A stretch of 64,000 nucleotides of DNA from a virus: the IMG/VR virus record IMGVR_UViG_3300029343_000516; one strand, 5' to 3'. Shown in pieces: positions 31,556-39,694 of the stretch. The notes below the pieces were generated by a model. That model had not been told where the DNA came from, searched no databases, and saw only the letters and a program-made list of their open reading frames with translations. The translations under genes and the position numbers were made by a program. The number at the start of each line of letters is the position of its first letter. Within the stretch, counting starts at the first letter, position 1.

Positions 31556-31630
31556 CTAGGCTGGTGGGACTTGAACCCACAAAACCTGCGGTCAAAGCGC
31601 AGTGCGTCTAACCAATTTCGCCACAGCCCA
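31556..31630 (-). tRNA. tRNA-Gln (anticodon UUG), Firmicutes-like
   Basis: Cloverleaf with acceptor UGGGCUG/CAGCCUA (U1-A72, G73), D-loop with GG, anticodon stem CUGCG/CGCAG, loop CUUUGAC and T-arm GUGGG-UUCAAGU-CCCAC. Resembles B. subtilis tRNA-Gln. No encoded CCA. Confidence 0.75.
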
Positions 31631-34199: not shown

Positions 34200-35648
34200 T
34201 TATGCATTTGCCATCTTATCAAAACTTCTCTTCATGAAGTCATAATTTACCTTCTGTGAAGAGCTAAATTTCTTCTGATTTTTGTATTTATTAATCCATT
34301 CCTCAAACTTGTCCTCATTCTCATTCTTGCAAGCATAAGCCATTAAAGCAATTAATGCCATCTGACACTTCTGATATAGTGGAATATCTATTTTTATCTG
34401 ATTATGATTAAAACAATACTCAACTAAATCTGTATATTCTTCAACATCCTCATTTGTCACTTCAGAATCTGCATTCTCCTGAACAAAGGAAAGAATGCTT
34501 TCTTCCGTATTATCTTCAACATTTTCTTCCGTATTATTATTCTCTATTTCCTTGCTATTTGTTTCTGCTGTATCAATATATAAAAAATCGTTCATCAAAG
34601 CTGTATATGTATTAATTTTAGCAACTACAAGTTTTTTATCTGTAGTACCAGACTCTTTATTTAACGAATCGTAACTGACACCATTAACATCAATACTATG
34701 TAATTTTCCTGATAACTCATGAATAAAATCTGCAAACTTGCTATCTTCTAAACCACATTTTGCAAATCTACTAAATACTGTCAGCCATACAGGAATATCT
34801 TTTTTAACAAGAATATCTTTACAAGTATCTTTACAAGCCGCTTCGATTCTTTGAAAATATTCATGGATTGTATTAAACTCTTCGATATTACTGTTATCTT
34901 CGAGATAATCACATATTTCTTTTGCACCACGTTTATAGTCATCAAAATGAAAAACATTCATAACAGATCTGCATACACTCTGCATATATTCTCCGTTTTT
35001 TCTGGCAGTATCAGAATACTCAATACTATTTTTAAAGAATCCTTCATCGGCAATGTTTTTAATTTTTCTTGCATATGTAGGAATCCAAGTCAACGCTCTC
35101 TGACTTGTATTCATTCCTCTTTGTACATTCAATTTTCTTACCAATTTACTTACCTTTTTCATATCACAATTTTGATATGTGGCAATTCTAAGCTGATAAT
35201 TGTCAAATCGTTTCTTCAGTTCTTTTGGAAAATCATCATATGTTTTATTTTTAATATCAAATGTTTTCTTTTCCCATACAAAATTCCCATCATCATCTTT
35301 TAGAAATTTACCATTTTCGTCTACTTGCTTTTCCTGGTACTCAATTTCACTATCTTCAATAGCACCAGTAAATTTATGATTTCCATATCTAATCTGCATC
35401 AATGCGGTTGTTCTCTGAAGACCATCTACAATATATTTCTGTACAATATCTTCATTTAAAGGAATTTCGGCTAAAATTAAAGGTGGAAGATAATCACCAG
35501 TTAAGATCGTAACACCGATTCCATTAACAAATGGTTTGTCGCTACAGAAATACCTCTGTACATCCTGATTGTCATTAACATCTCCATCTTTTACCTCACT
35601 GGTATAGTTAATCAATGGAATATTTTCTTCTCTTACTTTCTTTGCCAT
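34200..35648 (-). CDS. DGQHR-domain (DndB-like, ParB/Srx superfamily) protein
   Basis: VDGLQRTTAL matches the DGQHR signature. 482 aa with an acidic C-terminal tail. Confidence 0.5.
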   Translation of the reverse strand: MAKKVREENIPLINYTSEVKDGDVNDNQDVQRYFCSDKPFVNGIGVTILTGDYLPPLILAEIPLNEDIVQKYIVDGLQRTTALMQIRYGNHKFTGAIEDSEIEYQEKQVDENGKFLKDDDGNFVWEKKTFDIKNKTYDDFPKELKKRFDNYQLRIATYQNCDMKKVSKLVRKLNVQRGMNTSQRALTWIPTYARKIKNIADEGFFKNSIEYSDTARKNGEYMQSVCRSVMNVFHFDDYKRGAKEICDYLEDNSNIEEFNTIHEYFQRIEAACKDTCKDILVKKDIPVWLTVFSRFAKCGLEDSKFADFIHELSGKLHSIDVNGVSYDSLNKESGTTDKKLVVAKINTYTALMNDFLYIDTAETNSKEIENNNTEENVEDNTEESILSFVQENADSEVTNEDVEEYTDLVEYCFNHNQIKIDIPLYQKCQMALIALMAYACKNENEDKFEEWINKYKNQKKFSSSQKVNYDFMKRSFDKMANA

Positions 35649-35667: not shown

Positions 35668-36228
35668 TTACATTAAAATTTTTACATTCTCATATGCTTG
35701 AATAGCTGCAAGATTATTAGAATATTGTTTGCTATCCATATGTAATAATTCTCTGATTTCCTTTGCCTTATATCCTTCAGATAACAAAGCAACTATTTTC
35801 CGTTGATTATATGATAATTTATTCAAATATCTTTCTATCTTTGTGCCTTCAAGCATATACTCAGCAACAAGTTCATATGTATTAAAATCTGATGGAATTA
35901 ATTCGCTTAATTCCATACCATCCTCTGATACCAAACTATTGATTGAATCAATCTTCTTCGCAGGAATTCGTTTGTTACGATTACGATCACGAATTTCAGT
36001 TTTAAACTTTCGTTTAATGTTGCTGGCTAAGAATGAATCAAAACTGCATTGATTTTTTTCATCATATTTAAAAACCGAATAACTAAGTGTATCTAATGCA
36101 ATGTCAAAGAAATCATCATAATCCTTATCAGATATGCCACCTATTTTGATTATCATTGGAAGACACATTTTCTTGAGCATAGCCATTTCGTTGTTACAGT
36201 AATAGTTAAGTGTTTGTTGTATATCCAT
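35668..36228 (-). CDS. sigma-70 region-4-like / HTH regulator (possible phage sigma factor)
   Basis: C-terminal RKIVALLSEGYKAKEIRELLHMDSKQYSNNLAAIQ is a sigma region 4/LuxR-type HTH. 186 aa. Confidence 0.45.
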   Translation of the reverse strand: MDIQQTLNYYCNNEMAMLKKMCLPMIIKIGGISDKDYDDFFDIALDTLSYSVFKYDEKNQCSFDSFLASNIKRKFKTEIRDRNRNKRIPAKKIDSINSLVSEDGMELSELIPSDFNTYELVAEYMLEGTKIERYLNKLSYNQRKIVALLSEGYKAKEIRELLHMDSKQYSNNLAAIQAYENVKILM

Positions 36229-36253
36229 TTCATTACTCCTTTGATTTTGATGT

Positions 36254-36532
36254 TTACTTATTCTCTGTTTCGTTCACTTCAATTATTCGATATGTATATT
36301 TTCGGTTGAATAATCCATTTATTGCTTTTTGTGTTCTTTCTTTGCTGACTTTAGTGGTGTCTACTTCAGCAATTACATTATGTATAATGACCATCTCATC
36401 TTTGAGGTTACGTCTATTTTTTCGATTTGTACGAATTCTCTTATAGAATATCCAGCCTCTGTAGAGATCAACTGGCTTTTCCAACTCTACTTCATGTAAG
36501 ATATCTATCAATTCTTCGTCAGCTCGCTTCAA
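36254..36532 (-). CDS. hypothetical protein (92 aa)
   Basis: ORF. Confidence 0.4.
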   Translation of the reverse strand: MKRADEELIDILHEVELEKPVDLYRGWIFYKRIRTNRKNRRNLKDEMVIIHNVIAEVDTTKVSKERTQKAINGLFNRKYTYRIIEVNETENK

Positions 36533-36604
36533 CTCAATTTCGAGTTCTTTATATCTTTTTGCTGCATCACTAAGAATTCGTTCACATTCGCCAAACTTAT
36601 CAAC

Positions 36605-36880
36605 TCAAGACTTAACTGATTCAGCAACTTCATATCCATCATTACCTTTAATTGATACTTTAGTTGCTTTAACAATTCTCTCAACTGATGTTTCCATCTT
36701 AATATCAGGTATACATTCCAATTTAAAATGTAAACGTCTCATAGATTTTGGTAGATGCTCCAAGATATTTTCTGCCTTTTGCTTTTGAAATGTGTCTCTT
36801 GTTTTCTTTGTACAAGCAATTGGTTGTCCATTATTGAGCCTTATGTATACACCATTGTTGTTTACAATTGCGTATTCCAA
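36605..36880 (-). CDS. hypothetical protein (91 aa)
   Basis: ORF. Confidence 0.4.
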   Translation of the reverse strand: MEYAIVNNNGVYIRLNNGQPIACTKKTRDTFQKQKAENILEHLPKSMRRLHFKLECIPDIKMETSVERIVKATKVSIKGNDGYEVAESVKS

Positions 36881-36912
36881 TTTCTATCACCCTTTCTTCT
36901 TATTTATAATAA

Positions 36913-36969
36913 GAGGCATCAAGGAGTTGAACCTTACATAATTTGACTTTCCTGTAAAGCTGATGCCTC
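36913..36969 (-). ncRNA. tRNA-like minihelix lacking an anticodon arm
   Basis: 8-bp acceptor-like stem GAGGCAUC/GAUGCCUC, a small hairpin CUUU-ACAGG-AAAG and a T-arm-like AAGG-UUCAACU-CCUU whose loop fits the TΨC consensus. 57 nt, too short for a full tRNA. Confidence 0.35.
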
Positions 36970-37099
36970 ATCCGTTAGTGGATTAAACTATGGTAGAACT
37001 ATAGCAGCTACACATTCTGCTCTTACAAGGCAATATGTATGTACAAAGAAACAAGTACCTTGCGTACTGCACTTACATCGGGTGTGATTCAGTGCATAA

Positions 37100-37171
37100 C
37101 GGGGCTACTGGGATTCGAACCCAGAAATACATGGATCAAAACCATGTGCCTTGCCATTTGGCGATAACCCT
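37100..37171 (-). tRNA. tRNA-Gln (anticodon UUG), E. coli tRNA-Gln-like
   Basis: AGGGUUAUCGCCAAAUGGCAAGGCACAUGGUUUUGAUCCAUGUAUUUCUGGGUUCGAAUCCCAGUAGCCCCG is near-identical in architecture to E. coli tRNA-Gln (AUCGCCAAG...GGCA, loop UUUUGAU, T-arm CUGGG-UUCGAAU-CCCAG). A1·C72 mismatch, G73, no CCA. Confidence 0.75.
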
Positions 37172-37229
37172 ATAATTTATTAAATTTTGATTAAATATGT
37201 GAAAAATATGCTGAATTGCTTGAATTTAA

Positions 37230-37258
37230 TTGACATTCCATCAATTTATATGTATTAT
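37230..37258 (+). promoter_or_regulatory. sigma-70-like promoter TTGACA-N17-TATTAT (plus strand)
   Basis: Consensus -35 hexamer and near-consensus -10 with 17-nt spacing in a non-coding region. Confidence 0.45.
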
Positions 37259-37264
37259 AATTAT

Positions 37265-37363
37265 GAGCGTATTCCAGTACGTTCATAATACAATTCAACC
37301 AAATATTTTTAGGAAAGTCGAGCTAGTGTTCCAGCACTATGATGCTCGGCTTTCTCTTTTTGT
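37265..37363 (+). ncRNA. candidate small RNA (promoter to terminator, about 90-100 nt)
   Basis: Bounded by the promoter at 37230-37258 and the terminator at 37314-37363. No credible ORF. Confidence 0.3.
37314..37363 (+). terminator. rho-independent terminator (10-bp stem AAAGUCGAGC/GCUCGGCUUU plus U-tract)
   Basis: Perfect 10-bp stem, structured loop, followed by CUCUUUUUGU. An A-tract on the other side means it could also terminate the minus-strand gene ending at 37478. Confidence 0.6.
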
Positions 37364-37477
37364 ATCTCACATTTTATATATTAGAACGTTCGTTCGATTT
37401 TGTCAATACTTTTATCGAACATTCATTCTGTTTTTTATATAATATCACGTTACGAGTCCCAAATTCTGCTCTCGTAA

Positions 37478-37744
37478 CTATTTTCTTGAAAGAATTGTAT
37501 GTAAATATCCCCTTGGCGTTTCTTCTTGGATTTCTGAAAAAACTTTAAGCCCATTGGAAAATTCATCACATACCCTTGCGATGCTTGCAGCTTCTTCCAA
37601 GATATTTGTGCAGTCGCAAAATTTCTTTTTACAAAATCCAACATTCACATCAGGTTTTGCTAAATCCTGCTTCGCTACTAATACAATAGCATCTTTTTTT
37701 GCAAACTTTTTCGCTTCTTCCAGCGACATTTTAATATATTCCAT
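37478..37744 (-). CDS. hypothetical protein (88 aa), co-transcribed with the MazF-like toxin (possible cognate partner)
   Basis: Start is 2 nt after the toxin stop; CxC pair. Confidence 0.4.
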   Translation of the reverse strand: MEYIKMSLEEAKKFAKKDAIVLVAKQDLAKPDVNVGFCKKKFCDCTNILEEAASIARVCDEFSNGLKVFSEIQEETPRGYLHTILSRK

Positions 37745-37745
37745 A

Positions 37746-38108
37746 TTAAGCCTCCTCTAATTGCCCGAAATTAGCATCGTATACTGCTTTGACTTTTATT
37801 TTCTCTTGTAATTTAGTGATAGTACCTAACTTCTTCATTATTCTCTTTTTTGAAACTTGCCTAACGCATTCACCAAGAATCATTGAATCTTTAGTTAATC
37901 CTTTGCCTAAATCCTTATGAAAGAAAGAATGTGTCGGTTGCTGAAGATGTTTTATTTTACTTGTAAATGGAATTACAATTGTTGTATCAGAATAAATATT
38001 GCCATAAGCATTCTGAATTACAACTGCTGGTCTTATACCGCCTTGCTCTCCAGCAAAGACCACATCTCCGAAATCAACTCTTACAATATCAAAAGTATTT
38101 ATTTCCAT
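37746..38108 (-). CDS. mazF: MazF/PemK-family endoribonuclease toxin
   Basis: FDIVRVDFGDVVFAGEQGGIRPAVVIQN and ILGECVRQVSKKR match the PemK/MazF fold signature (GDIV.VDF.....E..K.RPAVVIS). 120 aa. Confidence 0.65.
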   Translation of the reverse strand: MEINTFDIVRVDFGDVVFAGEQGGIRPAVVIQNAYGNIYSDTTIVIPFTSKIKHLQQPTHSFFHKDLGKGLTKDSMILGECVRQVSKKRIMKKLGTITKLQEKIKVKAVYDANFGQLEEA

Positions 38109-38257
38109 ATATCACATCCTCCTTTCTTATATTGAGTATTCATAACTACCTTGGATTACCTTTGATACTTCGTATTATATACCTATACATATTATATGTC
38201 AACATATAATATTGAAAAATATAATATTTTTTGATATTATATTAATAAGTAATTCAC

Positions 38258-38476
38258 ATGGAGGTATTATATATGAAATTAAATGTGAAACAAATTCTTG
38301 AAAAACAAGGCAAAACTCCATATTGGTTATCTAAGGTTACAGGAATTTCTAACAATAATATTAGCAATATTTGCAATGGTGACACAAAAAGTATTCGACT
38401 TGACACCATTGAGAAAATATGTCATGCACTAAATTGCACACCAAATGATATTTTCACCAACGACACTAATAAATAA
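38258..38476 (+). CDS. XRE-family HTH transcriptional regulator (Cro/CI-like, 72 aa)
   Basis: HTH_3 pattern QGKTPYWLSKVTGISNNNISNICNG. The only convincing plus-strand gene. Preceded by GGAGGT. Confidence 0.65.
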   Translation: MEVLYMKLNVKQILEKQGKTPYWLSKVTGISNNNISNICNGDTKSIRLDTIEKICHALNCTPNDIFTNDTNK

Positions 38477-38669
38477 ATTTAACGAGATCAAATGGTTGCA
38501 CTTCCATTGCTTTAGCAACCAAATCAAGTACAGCTAAGTCAGGAACAGCACTTCCATTTTCCCATTTACTGATTGTACTTGGTGCAATGTCAGACATTTT
38601 CGCAAGCCCTCTTACTGTTATTCTCTTTTCAGTTCTGATTTTCTTTCCAATATATTTAACCATAATCAC
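38466..38669 (-). CDS. XRE-family HTH transcriptional regulator (67 aa)
   Basis: ITVRGLAKMSDIAPSTISKWENG HTH_3 pattern. Convergent with, and overlapping, the plus-strand HTH gene. Confidence 0.6.
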   Translation of the reverse strand: MIMVKYIGKKIRTEKRITVRGLAKMSDIAPSTISKWENGSAVPDLAVLDLVAKAMEVQPFDLVKFIY

Positions 38670-39694
38670 ATCTCCATCAATTTCTCTTTCATTCCAACAG
38701 CTCCGTTTGCATAATTATTAACTGTTGTATTTACACTACTATGCCCCAACTGTTGTTGCACAAATGCAAGATTTCCATTCTGATTCATTATACTAGCATA
38801 ATAATGTCGCATCATATGTGGAGTAATACCATTTCCATAATTCTCAAATATCTGTTTGATATTTCTTTCCGTGGTACGTGTGCCATTCTTATTAATAAAA
38901 ACTGCTTCTTTGTCTACAATATTATTCAATGTGTTTCTATACTCTAGCCATTCTCTTAATGCTTTCAGAGCAGATCCAGTAAGATATACAGGTCTTTTTT
39001 CAGTTTCTCTTTGATATCCTTTTGGTAAAACCATAATATGTGACATATCATTAAGATCAATATATTCACTATTTTCATCTAAATGCAAATCTGATAAATC
39101 CAAACCAGCAAGTTCAGACTCTCTTATTCCAGTTCCTCTTAAGACACGAAAAATAGCAATATTCCTATTCCTTACACATTCATCCTTTTTCCACATTATT
39201 TTTTCTTCCATACCATTAAGCTGATTTTCTGTTGGAAGTTTTTGTGTTAAGTTGTTTTTAGAAGATATCCCTTTATATTTTATTTGTTTACTAAAATCTT
39301 CCATACTGTTATAAAGTTCTCTCAATAAACATTCTCTATATGAATATACATTTTTTATAAAACTTTTTATAATATTCTTTCTTGTTTCCGTTGTGGTTGG
39401 CGACATTCCATTTGTTTCCTTATATCTAAGGTATGAACTAATATTTTGTGGTCGCAAGTCGCTAAAATCAGAAACTTCTATTTCAGAAATTGATTTCTTA
39501 TTAATAATATTACTTTCAATCAACCACTGTAAAAAATCTTTAATTGCTACTAAATAATTTAACGCTCCGTTCTTGCTTTCCAACTCATTCAAGTAATCTC
39601 TTAAAAACTGTGGTGCATTTAACTCATCCAACTTCCTATTAAGCTTTTCAGCATTTTTATTTTGCACTTCTATCTTATAACACATAATTATCAC
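38666..39694 (-). CDS. int: tyrosine site-specific recombinase / integrase
   Basis: Catalytic R (VLRGTGIRESEL), HxxR (HMMRHYYAS), LGH box (LGHSSVNTT) and the Tyr nucleophile (NNY). 342 aa with an N-terminal SAM-like domain. Confidence 0.85.
   Translation of the reverse strand: MIIMCYKIEVQNKNAEKLNRKLDELNAPQFLRDYLNELESKNGALNYLVAIKDFLQWLIESNIINKKSISEIEVSDFSDLRPQNISSYLRYKETNGMSPTTTETRKNIIKSFIKNVYSYRECLLRELYNSMEDFSKQIKYKGISSKNNLTQKLPTENQLNGMEEKIMWKKDECVRNRNIAIFRVLRGTGIRESELAGLDLSDLHLDENSEYIDLNDMSHIMVLPKGYQRETEKRPVYLTGSALKALREWLEYRNTLNNIVDKEAVFINKNGTRTTERNIKQIFENYGNGITPHMMRHYYASIMNQNGNLAFVQQQLGHSSVNTTVNNYANGAVGMKEKLMEM

Follow-up and report, generated by a model that had tools for sequence, protein, structure and literature searches.

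Does the non-coding gap of 300 nt between a glutamine transfer RNA (tRNA) gene and a PemK/MazF-like toxin operon in the IMG/VR virus record IMGVR_UViG_3300029343_000516 encode an RNA and, if so, what would such an RNA do? The stretch of DNA that was analysed, referred to as the window, comprises 64,000 nt of this record, and nearly all of its genes are located on the minus strand. An earlier note, made from the letters of the window, had pointed to a candidate small RNA (sRNA) on the plus strand of the gap, antisense to the general direction of transcription, and had suggested that it could be an antitoxin-type antisense RNA or a regulator of the lysogeny module. The antisense orientation was confirmed, and we find that a plus-strand sRNA of about 100 nt is very probably encoded there: its promoter, 5′ hairpin and terminator recur in 17 or more sequence families, and selection acts on the plus-strand fold. 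The sRNA lies opposite the 5′ leader of a convergent promoter with LexA boxes, here called P_SOS. Judged from sequence comparison, it is probably a constitutive cis-antisense RNA of about 100 nt that backs the LexA control of phage lytic-operon transcripts. The coordinates of all features are given in Table 1.

The promoter of the predicted sRNA, P_sRNA, is exactly the TTGACA-N17-TATTAT element that had been described, with 11 of 12 consensus matches. Across the window, which has 31% G+C, 26 promoter-like hexamer pairs were found compared to 27.9 expected. Since a lone promoter-like site is at chance level, the case for the sRNA had to rest on the comparison with relatives. What stands above chance is the entire unit, which is kept in every related locus. 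The reported terminator and its U-tract are real as well, but the stem, taken to be a perfect helix of 10 bp, is more elaborate, with two tiers, G.U pairs and a bulge. The possibility that this hairpin serves only the minus-strand gene ending at 37478 can be set aside, as the sequence past the hairpin on the minus strand is CCUAAAAAU and not a U-run. The absence of a credible open reading frame (ORF) was likewise confirmed: the listed plus-strand ORFs (37230.., 37339..) begin within the -35 hexamer or the terminator and have no ribosome-binding site and, with RNA sequences that cannot be aligned between families, they are not conserved either. Two features had been overlooked, namely the convergent LexA-box promoter, whose 5′ leader is exactly complementary to the sRNA, and a 5′ hairpin with a UUCCAG loop identical to that of the terminator. 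These two hairpins are the only ones with a UUCCAG loop in the 64 kb.

Among 50,697 GenBank phages no DNA match was found, neither to the 300-nt gap nor to the surrounding 15 kb. Relatives were reached instead through p88, a conserved protein of 88 amino acids (aa) encoded in the mazF-p88 operon. A protein search with p88 yielded 47 IMG/VR loci with 53-100% identity, located on contigs of up to ~167 kb, many of them of at least 90 kb; the genome scan with a p88 profile returned one genome only, a prophage of Eubacterium segne BX4 (class Clostridia), and a contig from the Hadza gut was reached via a p88 homologue. An exact 20-nt scan for the 5′ hairpin gave nine close relatives plus L004, which was dropped as a chance match within a high-GC coding region. 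The sRNA layout was present in 47/47 p88-anchored IMG/VR loci, in L002 and L005, in the E. segne prophage and in the Hadza gut contig. Read in the orientation of the sRNA, each gap consists of a sigma-70-type promoter, a 5′ hairpin from about +1, a linker, a two-tier terminator and a U-tract, and the -10 element of the convergent promoter follows 8-20 nt past the U-tract. In every family the promoter has at least 9 of 12 matches and stands at a constant distance from the 5′ hairpin. The synteny around the gap is constant too (integrase gene, helix-turn-helix (HTH) gene, mazF, p88, gap, 0-2 tRNAs, small ORFs, sigma-like gene, GmrSD_N). The anatomy of the gap is the same in every locus, yet blastn aligns only the closest relatives.

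The sRNA sequences fall into at least 17 mutually unalignable families; between ten of these, sRNA identity was 0.53 compared to 0.49 after shuffling, while it reached 0.69 for mazF and 0.67 for p88. The sRNA persists even beside a MazF-like gene of only 33% identity, where p88 is absent. Against this background the conservation of the fold is pronounced. For the window, the plus-strand RNA has a minimum free energy of -32.7 to -33.2 kcal/mol (z -6.3 to -7.3), and none of 200 shuffles was as good, whereas its reverse complement reaches -21.2 kcal/mol (z = -1.9). Across 11 family representatives the plus strand gave z-scores from -4.8 to -7.3, again with 0/200 shuffles as good in each, compared to -1.3 to -5.1 for the reverse complements, and the plus strand had the better z-score in 11/11. 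Compensatory changes were found as well. In family G1, to which the window belongs (8 variants), 97.4% of the cells were paired and four pairs had changed on both sides, two of them in helix 1, the 5′ hairpin; 0/500 shuffles scored as high. For the inner helix of the terminator, compared over 15 families, 96.7% of the cells were paired and all four pairs were compensated (12 cells), a level likewise reached by none of 500 shuffles.

Strand assignment can also be read from the pairs themselves. G.U pairs make up 44 of the 314 predicted pairs of the plus-strand structures and become A.C mismatches on the opposite strand; the plus-strand structures contain five 1x1 mismatches, none of which is A.C. 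Together, the z-scores, the G.U pairs and the covariation indicate that the fold belongs to the plus-strand RNA and is copied in weaker form by the mirror hairpins of the leader. The converse would be that the minus-strand leader holds the functional structure, for instance a 5′ stabiliser, a tRNA processing site or an antitermination hairpin of the nut or LoaP type, and that the plus-strand promoter is fortuitous. A hairpin does lie at about +10 to +55 of the leader, and the reverse complement beats its shuffles in most families, with z-scores down to -5.1. Nevertheless, we consider this explanation very improbable: it would leave unaccounted for a plus-strand promoter that is correctly placed in every family, a U-tract that exists on the plus strand only, the 44 G.U pairs that turn into mismatches in the leader, and the better plus-strand z-score in each of the 11 families.

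The 58 loci compared at P_SOS point to what regulates the transcript opposite the sRNA. The sequence GAAC-N4-GTTC, in its extended form CGAAC-N4-GTTCG, is the LexA operator of Bacillus and clostridia (PMC4234289, PMC4551915). Its exact core is present at P_SOS in 56/58 loci, and the remaining two differ by one mismatch. Aligned on the -35 element, the order in every family is a LexA box, 8-10 nt, TTGACA, ~4 nt, CGAAC-N4-GTTC and TATtAT. The second box, which has one core mismatch in the window, is a perfect GAAC-N4-GTTC in families G4, G6, G9 and G10. With one box overlapping the core promoter, P_SOS has the appearance of a LexA-repressed promoter of the Firmicute type. It converges with P_sRNA, its -10 element being ~15 nt past the U-tract of the sRNA, and the two start sites are ~106 bp apart. 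The sRNA ends ~8 nt short of the P_SOS start site, so that every P_SOS transcript should open with the full complement of the sRNA. In an RNAduplex scan of the window, the cis strand was the only outstanding partner, at -112 kcal/mol. A further source of target RNA may lie upstream. The distance from the p88 stop codon to the -35 of P_SOS is 24-96 nt in the nine families tested, and no intrinsic terminator (hairpin plus U-run) was found in this interval in any of the nine; read-through from mazF-p88 should therefore also enter the leader and carry the full sRNA complement. The suggestion of the earlier note that the RNA regulates the lysogeny module came close, as the sRNA sits at the boundary between the lysogeny and the lytic modules.

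A second scan with the pattern TTGACA-N4-CGAAC-N4-GTTC-TA, which combines the -35 element with the LexA box, matched at least 118 IMG/VR phage contigs. The sRNA unit was present in 36 of 113 evaluable loci, all from one lineage. The other 77 failed the automatic criteria, and a few of them carry the unit after all: L095 and L130, which on inspection added further sRNA families, and G1 variants that have no U-tract. In the inspected loci from other phages the LexA promoter is followed directly by an ORF. This type of LexA promoter thus appears to be common in Firmicute phages and the antisense unit to be specific to the lineage studied here. L130 also has a direct repeat, ACCGCAGAATTAACTGCACCA x2, in the leader of the SOS transcript just past the sRNA promoter.

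Sequence is kept across families only in the apical hairpin of the terminator and its 3′ flank, in the form GGUR-loop-YACC, often followed by GUUUGA. Position C13 of the apical loop is invariant and A14 is found in 14/15 families. The loops read CGCCAA (four families), (C)UGCCAA (three), UUGCAG (two), CCCCAA, (C)UCCCAA, UUCCAG (the window), (C)UCGCAA and UUGCCG. The mirror loops of the leader accordingly read UUGGCG, UUGGCA, UUGGGG, CUGGAA (the window) and so on; 10/15 families have the YUGG type and four exactly UUGGCG. UUGGCG is named as a loop motif in the title of Asano et al. 1998 and is said to be that of the Inc RNA of plasmid ColIb-P9; YUNR U-turn loops reportedly are a general device for fast pairing between antisense and target RNAs (Franch et al. 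1999). With a loop of 6-7 nt that carries or faces a motif of the YUNR/UUGGCG type, the sRNA would qualify as a kissing-loop RNA. The 5′ hairpin has a stable small loop in most families (GUAA, UUCG and the like) and looks protective. A covariance model of the 25 positions of the apical hairpin was tried as a detector and given up for its low information content; 15 of its 19 matches at E <= 1 were at the expected site and strand, two on the mirror strand and two elsewhere (E 0.1-0.2). Mimicry of an anticodon stem-loop was also considered and rejected, since a 7-nt C-U-NNN-A-A loop exists in five families only and the others have 6 nt.

That conservation is confined to the apical hairpin and its flank could equally be expected of an sRNA acting in trans or binding a protein, with the hairpin as a seed or as the site of a phage or host protein and its place opposite P_SOS as a mere economy of the genome. 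The anticodon-like 7-nt loop of the five families and the constant vicinity of a MazF-like ribonuclease gene would fit such a role. We find it rather improbable. No trans site stands out in the window, a seed would need more than six conserved loop bases, and both the length (6 or 7 nt) and the sequence of the loop vary. The remainder of the RNA is hypervariable, as expected where complementarity is guaranteed in cis, and the distance between U-tract and P_SOS -10 element is held tightly at 8-20 nt.

For the cis-antisense RNA that we favour, the following course of events can be proposed. In the lysogen, LexA would occupy both boxes at P_SOS, and abundant sRNA would pair with leaders from residual transcription and from read-through. 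Pairing would probably begin as a kiss between the apical loop of the terminator (UUCCAG in the window, CGCCAA or UGCCAA elsewhere) and the mirror loop of the leader (CUGGAA, UUGGCG or UUGGCA), the latter being of the YUNR/U-turn type, and would extend to a full duplex. Cleavage of this duplex by RNase III and its decay would be expected to follow, or else transcription would be aborted; the lytic operon would stay silent and a threshold would be set. Upon DNA damage, LexA would be cleaved, P_SOS would fire strongly and its RNA would out-titrate the sRNA. Polymerases that cross P_sRNA from P_SOS should in addition halt sRNA synthesis, and induction would become switch-like.

Several observations weigh against this proposal. 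It is weakest at the step by which the duplex would cause silencing. No conserved ORF or ribosome-binding site was found across families in the stretch of the leader under the sRNA; as the duplex covers neither, this step is pure inference. Inspection by eye of the leader downstream of the duplex revealed no attenuator or terminator consistent across families. Both transcription starts and the 3′ end of the sRNA are placed by consensus elements. The lone GAAC-N4-GTTC in the 64 kb is not significant, with at least one in 29/100 shuffles, so the case for LexA rests on conservation. The promoter with a LexA box in its spacer also occurs in other phage contigs without the sRNA, and LexA control needs no RNA. 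The reverse strand beats chance in most families, so the leader hairpins may also serve a separate function. Finally, the U-tract is deleted in three G1-like variants, L086, L109 and L116 (…GCTCGACTTTCTCTGTATCTC…), in which the sRNA should read through into P_SOS.

Some of the same facts would suit a transcriptional insulator, in which P_sRNA fires head-on and colliding or promoter-bound polymerases, with LexA as a roadblock, stop the read-through while the RNA is incidental. The convergent promoters are ~106 bp apart, none of the nine families tested has a terminator between p88 and P_SOS, the RNA sequence drifts almost to randomness, and variants without a U-tract exist. An incidental RNA, however, would not hold a plus-strand-specific fold with its G.U pairs, compensatory changes and z-scores, nor would it keep a protective 5′ hairpin or a conserved apical loop. 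Moreover, the terminator halts the sRNA polymerases ahead of P_SOS and limits interference in that direction. We therefore judge the insulator to be unlikely.

The antitoxin function put forward in the earlier note is not borne out. As an RNA antitoxin of the MazF-like toxin, in the style of type I or type III systems, the sRNA would be expected to act on its neighbour, and it does adjoin the PemK/MazF gene in all loci. The complementarity to the mazF leader and mRNA is at background, however: target prediction against the mazF leader gave -14 to -24 kcal/mol, compared to a window mean of -18.6 +/- 5.3, with ranks >1000 of 8526. The sRNA is encoded downstream of the mazF operon and on the other strand, and the same sRNA is found beside the 33%-identical MazF where p88 is missing. 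As for a type I system, no conserved small hydrophobic toxin ORF (~20-60 aa) opposite to or overlapped by the sRNA was found in the leader across families. As for a type III system of the ToxI kind, tandem repeats were limited to two trivial 2-copy cases, and no array was found. We consider an antitoxin extremely unlikely. An RNA of the retron or CRISPR (clustered regularly interspaced short palindromic repeats) type was also considered and rejected, as the vicinity showed neither a reverse transcriptase nor cas genes or repeats.

The cis-antisense reading finds its nearest functional precedent, by analogy, in SymR/symE, its nearest shape in FinP, CopA and Inc RNA, and its nearest biology in sar, OOP, c4 and GIL01. 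In Escherichia coli, symE is controlled by LexA together with the cis-antisense RNA SymR (Kawano, Aravind & Storz 2007, PMC1891008). As proposed here, a constitutive cis-encoded sRNA stands opposite the 5′ end of a LexA-repressed SOS transcript, giving two layers of repression with the sRNA in excess. In contrast, SymR covers the ribosome-binding site and start codon of symE and blocks synthesis of a toxin, whereas the sRNA of the window overlaps no ORF; it would pair with the untranslated leader of a phage operon with a tRNA and a sigma-like gene, and the host is a Firmicute. IstR-1/tisB is similar to SymR/symE. Neither SymR nor IstR has a sequence or Rfam relationship to the sRNA.

FinP/traJ, CopA/CopT and Inc RNA/repZ are antisense RNAs of ~80-100 nt with two stem-loops that are fully complementary to the 5′ untranslated region of a regulator mRNA. 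Recognition through an apical loop of 6-7 nt is shared with them, including the CGCCAA/UUGGCG pair in four of our families. They differ in belonging to enterobacterial plasmids (F-like, IncFII, IncI-alpha), in serving replication or transfer through translational mechanisms, and in showing no homology to the sRNA. Here, moreover, the antisense RNA carries the CGCCAA-type loop and the target UUGGCG, the loop of the window is UUCCAG, and the context is a phage. Small phage RNAs that are produced in the lysogen or at an early stage of infection and pair with transcripts of the lysis-lysogeny decision are sar of P22 (target ant), OOP of lambda (cII), c4 of P1 and P7 (ant) and the CI RNA of P4. Among these, c4 and P4 CI are immunity determinants whose specificity lies in short loops. 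None of them is known to face a LexA-controlled promoter in this way, and their phages infect Gram-negative bacteria.

Lysogeny held by host LexA is known for GIL01 of Bacillus thuringiensis (PMC4551915). This temperate Firmicute phage resembles the proposed system in its early promoter with CGAAC-N4-GTTCG boxes, in the control of induction by the host SOS response and in having a phage-encoded helper, which in GIL01 is the protein gp7 that stabilises LexA, while the extra layer proposed here is an antisense RNA. The uviA gene of the Clostridium perfringens plasmid pIP404 encodes an SOS-controlled sigma factor of the TcdR family. There, too, a small alternative sigma factor is expressed from a LexA-type promoter and switches on a downstream programme, and we know of no antisense RNA described for it. 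Searches of Rfam with the window and 15 representative loci, at the gathering threshold and at E <= 10, returned tRNAs only; no match linked the sRNA to sar, OOP, c4, P4 CI, SymR or IstR.

Table 1. Features of the sRNA locus and its surroundings in the window (positions of the 64,000-nt stretch).
Feature	Coordinates	Strand	Remarks
GmrSD_N/DUF262 protein	34200-35648	-	
Sigma-70-like protein, 186 aa	35668-36228	-	TIGR02937, 6.5e-08; homologues contain Sigma70_r2
p92	36254-36532	-	in the operon fed by P_SOS
p91	36605-36880	-	about 90 aa, like p92; in the operon fed by P_SOS (35668-36880)
tRNA-Gln(UUG)	37099-37172	-	first product past the leader
Predicted leader of the SOS transcript	37173-37372	-	+8 to +108 roughly = exact sRNA complement
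P_sRNA, sigma-70-type promoter TTGACA-N17-TATTAT	37230-37258	+	-35 37230-37235, -10 37253-37258; 11/12 consensus matches
Predicted sRNA, ~97-100 nt	37265-37363	+	start placed 6-8 nt past -10; end = U-tract
5′ hairpin, 9 bp incl. one G.U, loop UUCCAG	37263-37271/37278-37286	+	fold; compensatory changes in family G1
Linker, A/U-rich, single-stranded, 25 nt	37287-37311	+	fold
Terminator hairpin, two-tier	37312-37355	+	fold; covariation
Terminator outer stem	37312-37323/37344-37355	+	12 bp, two of them G.U
Terminator inner stem TAGTG/CACTA	37324-37328/37335-37339	+	
Terminator apical loop UUCCAG	37329-37334	+	
Terminator 3′-side bulge TGAT	37340-37343	+	
Terminator U-tract CTTTTTGT (= CUUUUUGU)	37356-37363	+	present in nearly all relatives
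P_SOS, TTGACA (37406-37401), 17-nt spacer, TAATAT (37383-37378)	37378-37406	-	10/12 matches; start expected at ~37370-37372
Predicted LexA (Cheo) box 1 AGAACGTTCGTTCG	37383-37396		within P_SOS spacer, abutting -10; sole GAAC-N4-GTTC in 64 kb
Predicted LexA box 2, minus strand AGAATGAATGTTCG	37416-37429		one core mismatch; upstream of P_SOS -35
p88, conserved 88-aa protein	37478-37744	-	mazF-p88 operon 37478-38108
PemK/MazF-like toxin gene	37746-38108	-	
HTH gene, 72 aa, Cro/CI-type	38258-38476	+	
Small HTH protein	38466-38669	-	
Integrase	38666-39694	-	

Some further observations concern the two promoters and the leader. The sequence ATATGTA, conserved around the -16/-10 region of the sRNA promoter (37249-37255 and equivalents), corresponds to UACAU in the leader RNA, the motif at which MazF of Bacillus, Staphylococcus and C. 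difficile cleaves. Here it adjoins a phage MazF gene and may be a mere by-product of the TRTG promoter element. Inverted repeats span the -35 element of the sRNA promoter in several families (window 37230-37244; L016/L017; G8, L042), examples being TTGACAGAATGTCAA and ATGTCATTTGACAT. These repeats may be operators, so that regulation may extend to P_sRNA as well. Past the sRNA promoter, the SOS leader contains a conserved motif at 37199-37219 that reads GCAATTCAGCATATTTTTCAC on the minus and GTGAAAAATATGCTGAATTGC on the plus strand. Most families have it in the form GCNNTTCNGC-A-WAWWTTTCAC. Its distance to P_sRNA varies, but where a tRNA follows (G1, G4, G8) it is located 27-37 nt ahead of the first tRNA. 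At the p88 stop codon there is a hairpin (37449-37478) whose loop is inverted in L014 (GGCAGAATTTGGGA) compared to the other relatives (TCCCAAATTCTGCC); the loop sits between inverted arms of 8 bp, which makes it a small hairpin-loop inversion polymorphism. On the plus strand this hairpin is followed by TATTTTCTT and could be a back-up terminator for sRNA read-through.

On the lysogeny side of the gap, two back-to-back promoters at 38174-38240 form a divergent arrangement like that of cI/cro, one on the minus strand for mazF-p88 (38202-38174, 12/12 matches) and one on the plus strand for the 72-aa HTH gene (38212-38240, with TG). For p88 no Pfam, NCBIfam, PHROG or PDB match was obtained, 46/46 homologous clusters were unnamed, and the AlphaFold model was unusable (predicted local distance difference test score 50).

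On the lytic side, relatives have 0-2 tRNAs inside the SOS leader, and these phage tRNAs would be SOS-induced. The window holds a second tRNA-Gln(UUG) at 31556-31630. Between the first tRNA-Gln and p91, a non-coding stretch of ~220 nt (36881-37098, minus strand) is kept in close relatives. It includes a tRNA-like piece, GAGGCATCAGC...AAGGTTCAACTCCTTGATGCCTC (~36905-36962), with a 9-bp acceptor-like stem, a GGTTCAAnTCC T-loop and no clear anticodon arm, which was called neither by ARAGORN nor by Rfam. In L022 (3573-4169) and L042 (3584-4312) a single protein of 198-242 aa takes the place of p91 and p92, which match its N- and C-terminal halves, respectively, so that the gene has been split or interrupted in the family of the window. 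Several other families have proteins of 202-222 aa at this position (e.g. L033 3511-4119) that gave no tblastn match to p91/p92, and the p91/p92 protein had no Pfam match. The sigma-70-like and GmrSD_N/DUF262 proteins, encoded by separate genes in the window, are fused in L031 (4414-6276), L034 (4150-6252) and L056 (3569-5680), which suggests that they act together.

A bolder view of the cis-antisense RNA is that it determines immunity and commitment in a lineage of large (~90-185 kb) temperate phages of human-gut Clostridia that use host LexA and not a cleavable CI. P_sRNA, P_SOS and the antisense RNA would then form a bistable switch gating the phage sigma factor, and the mutually unalignable versions, at least 17 in number and all with a kissing loop of the CopA/Inc type, would be diversified immunity specificities that decide on superinfection and co-induction among related phages. 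We offer this view tentatively and regard it as doubtful.

By its sequence features, the sRNA would work like known cis-antisense regulators and would belong to no described family, being absent from Rfam and from the literature searched. Its setting at the LexA-box early promoter of large Clostridial phages, gating a sigma-like gene, appears to be new. How temperate phages exit the prophage state in the dominant gut Clostridia is poorly understood, and no RNA regulator of this exit was found for them in Rfam or in the literature searched. If the RNA merely dampens leaky transcription, it would be an elegant variation on a familiar theme and no surprise. The design is kept over a lineage of large phages that is seen in many human gut metagenomes and has one cultured lysogen, Eubacterium segne BX4, and it adds an example from a Gram-positive phage to the few circuits that combine LexA with a cis-antisense RNA (SymR, IstR). 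These results suggest that the CGCCAA/UUGGCG kissing-loop solution of enterobacterial plasmids arose, or was kept, in a wholly different setting.

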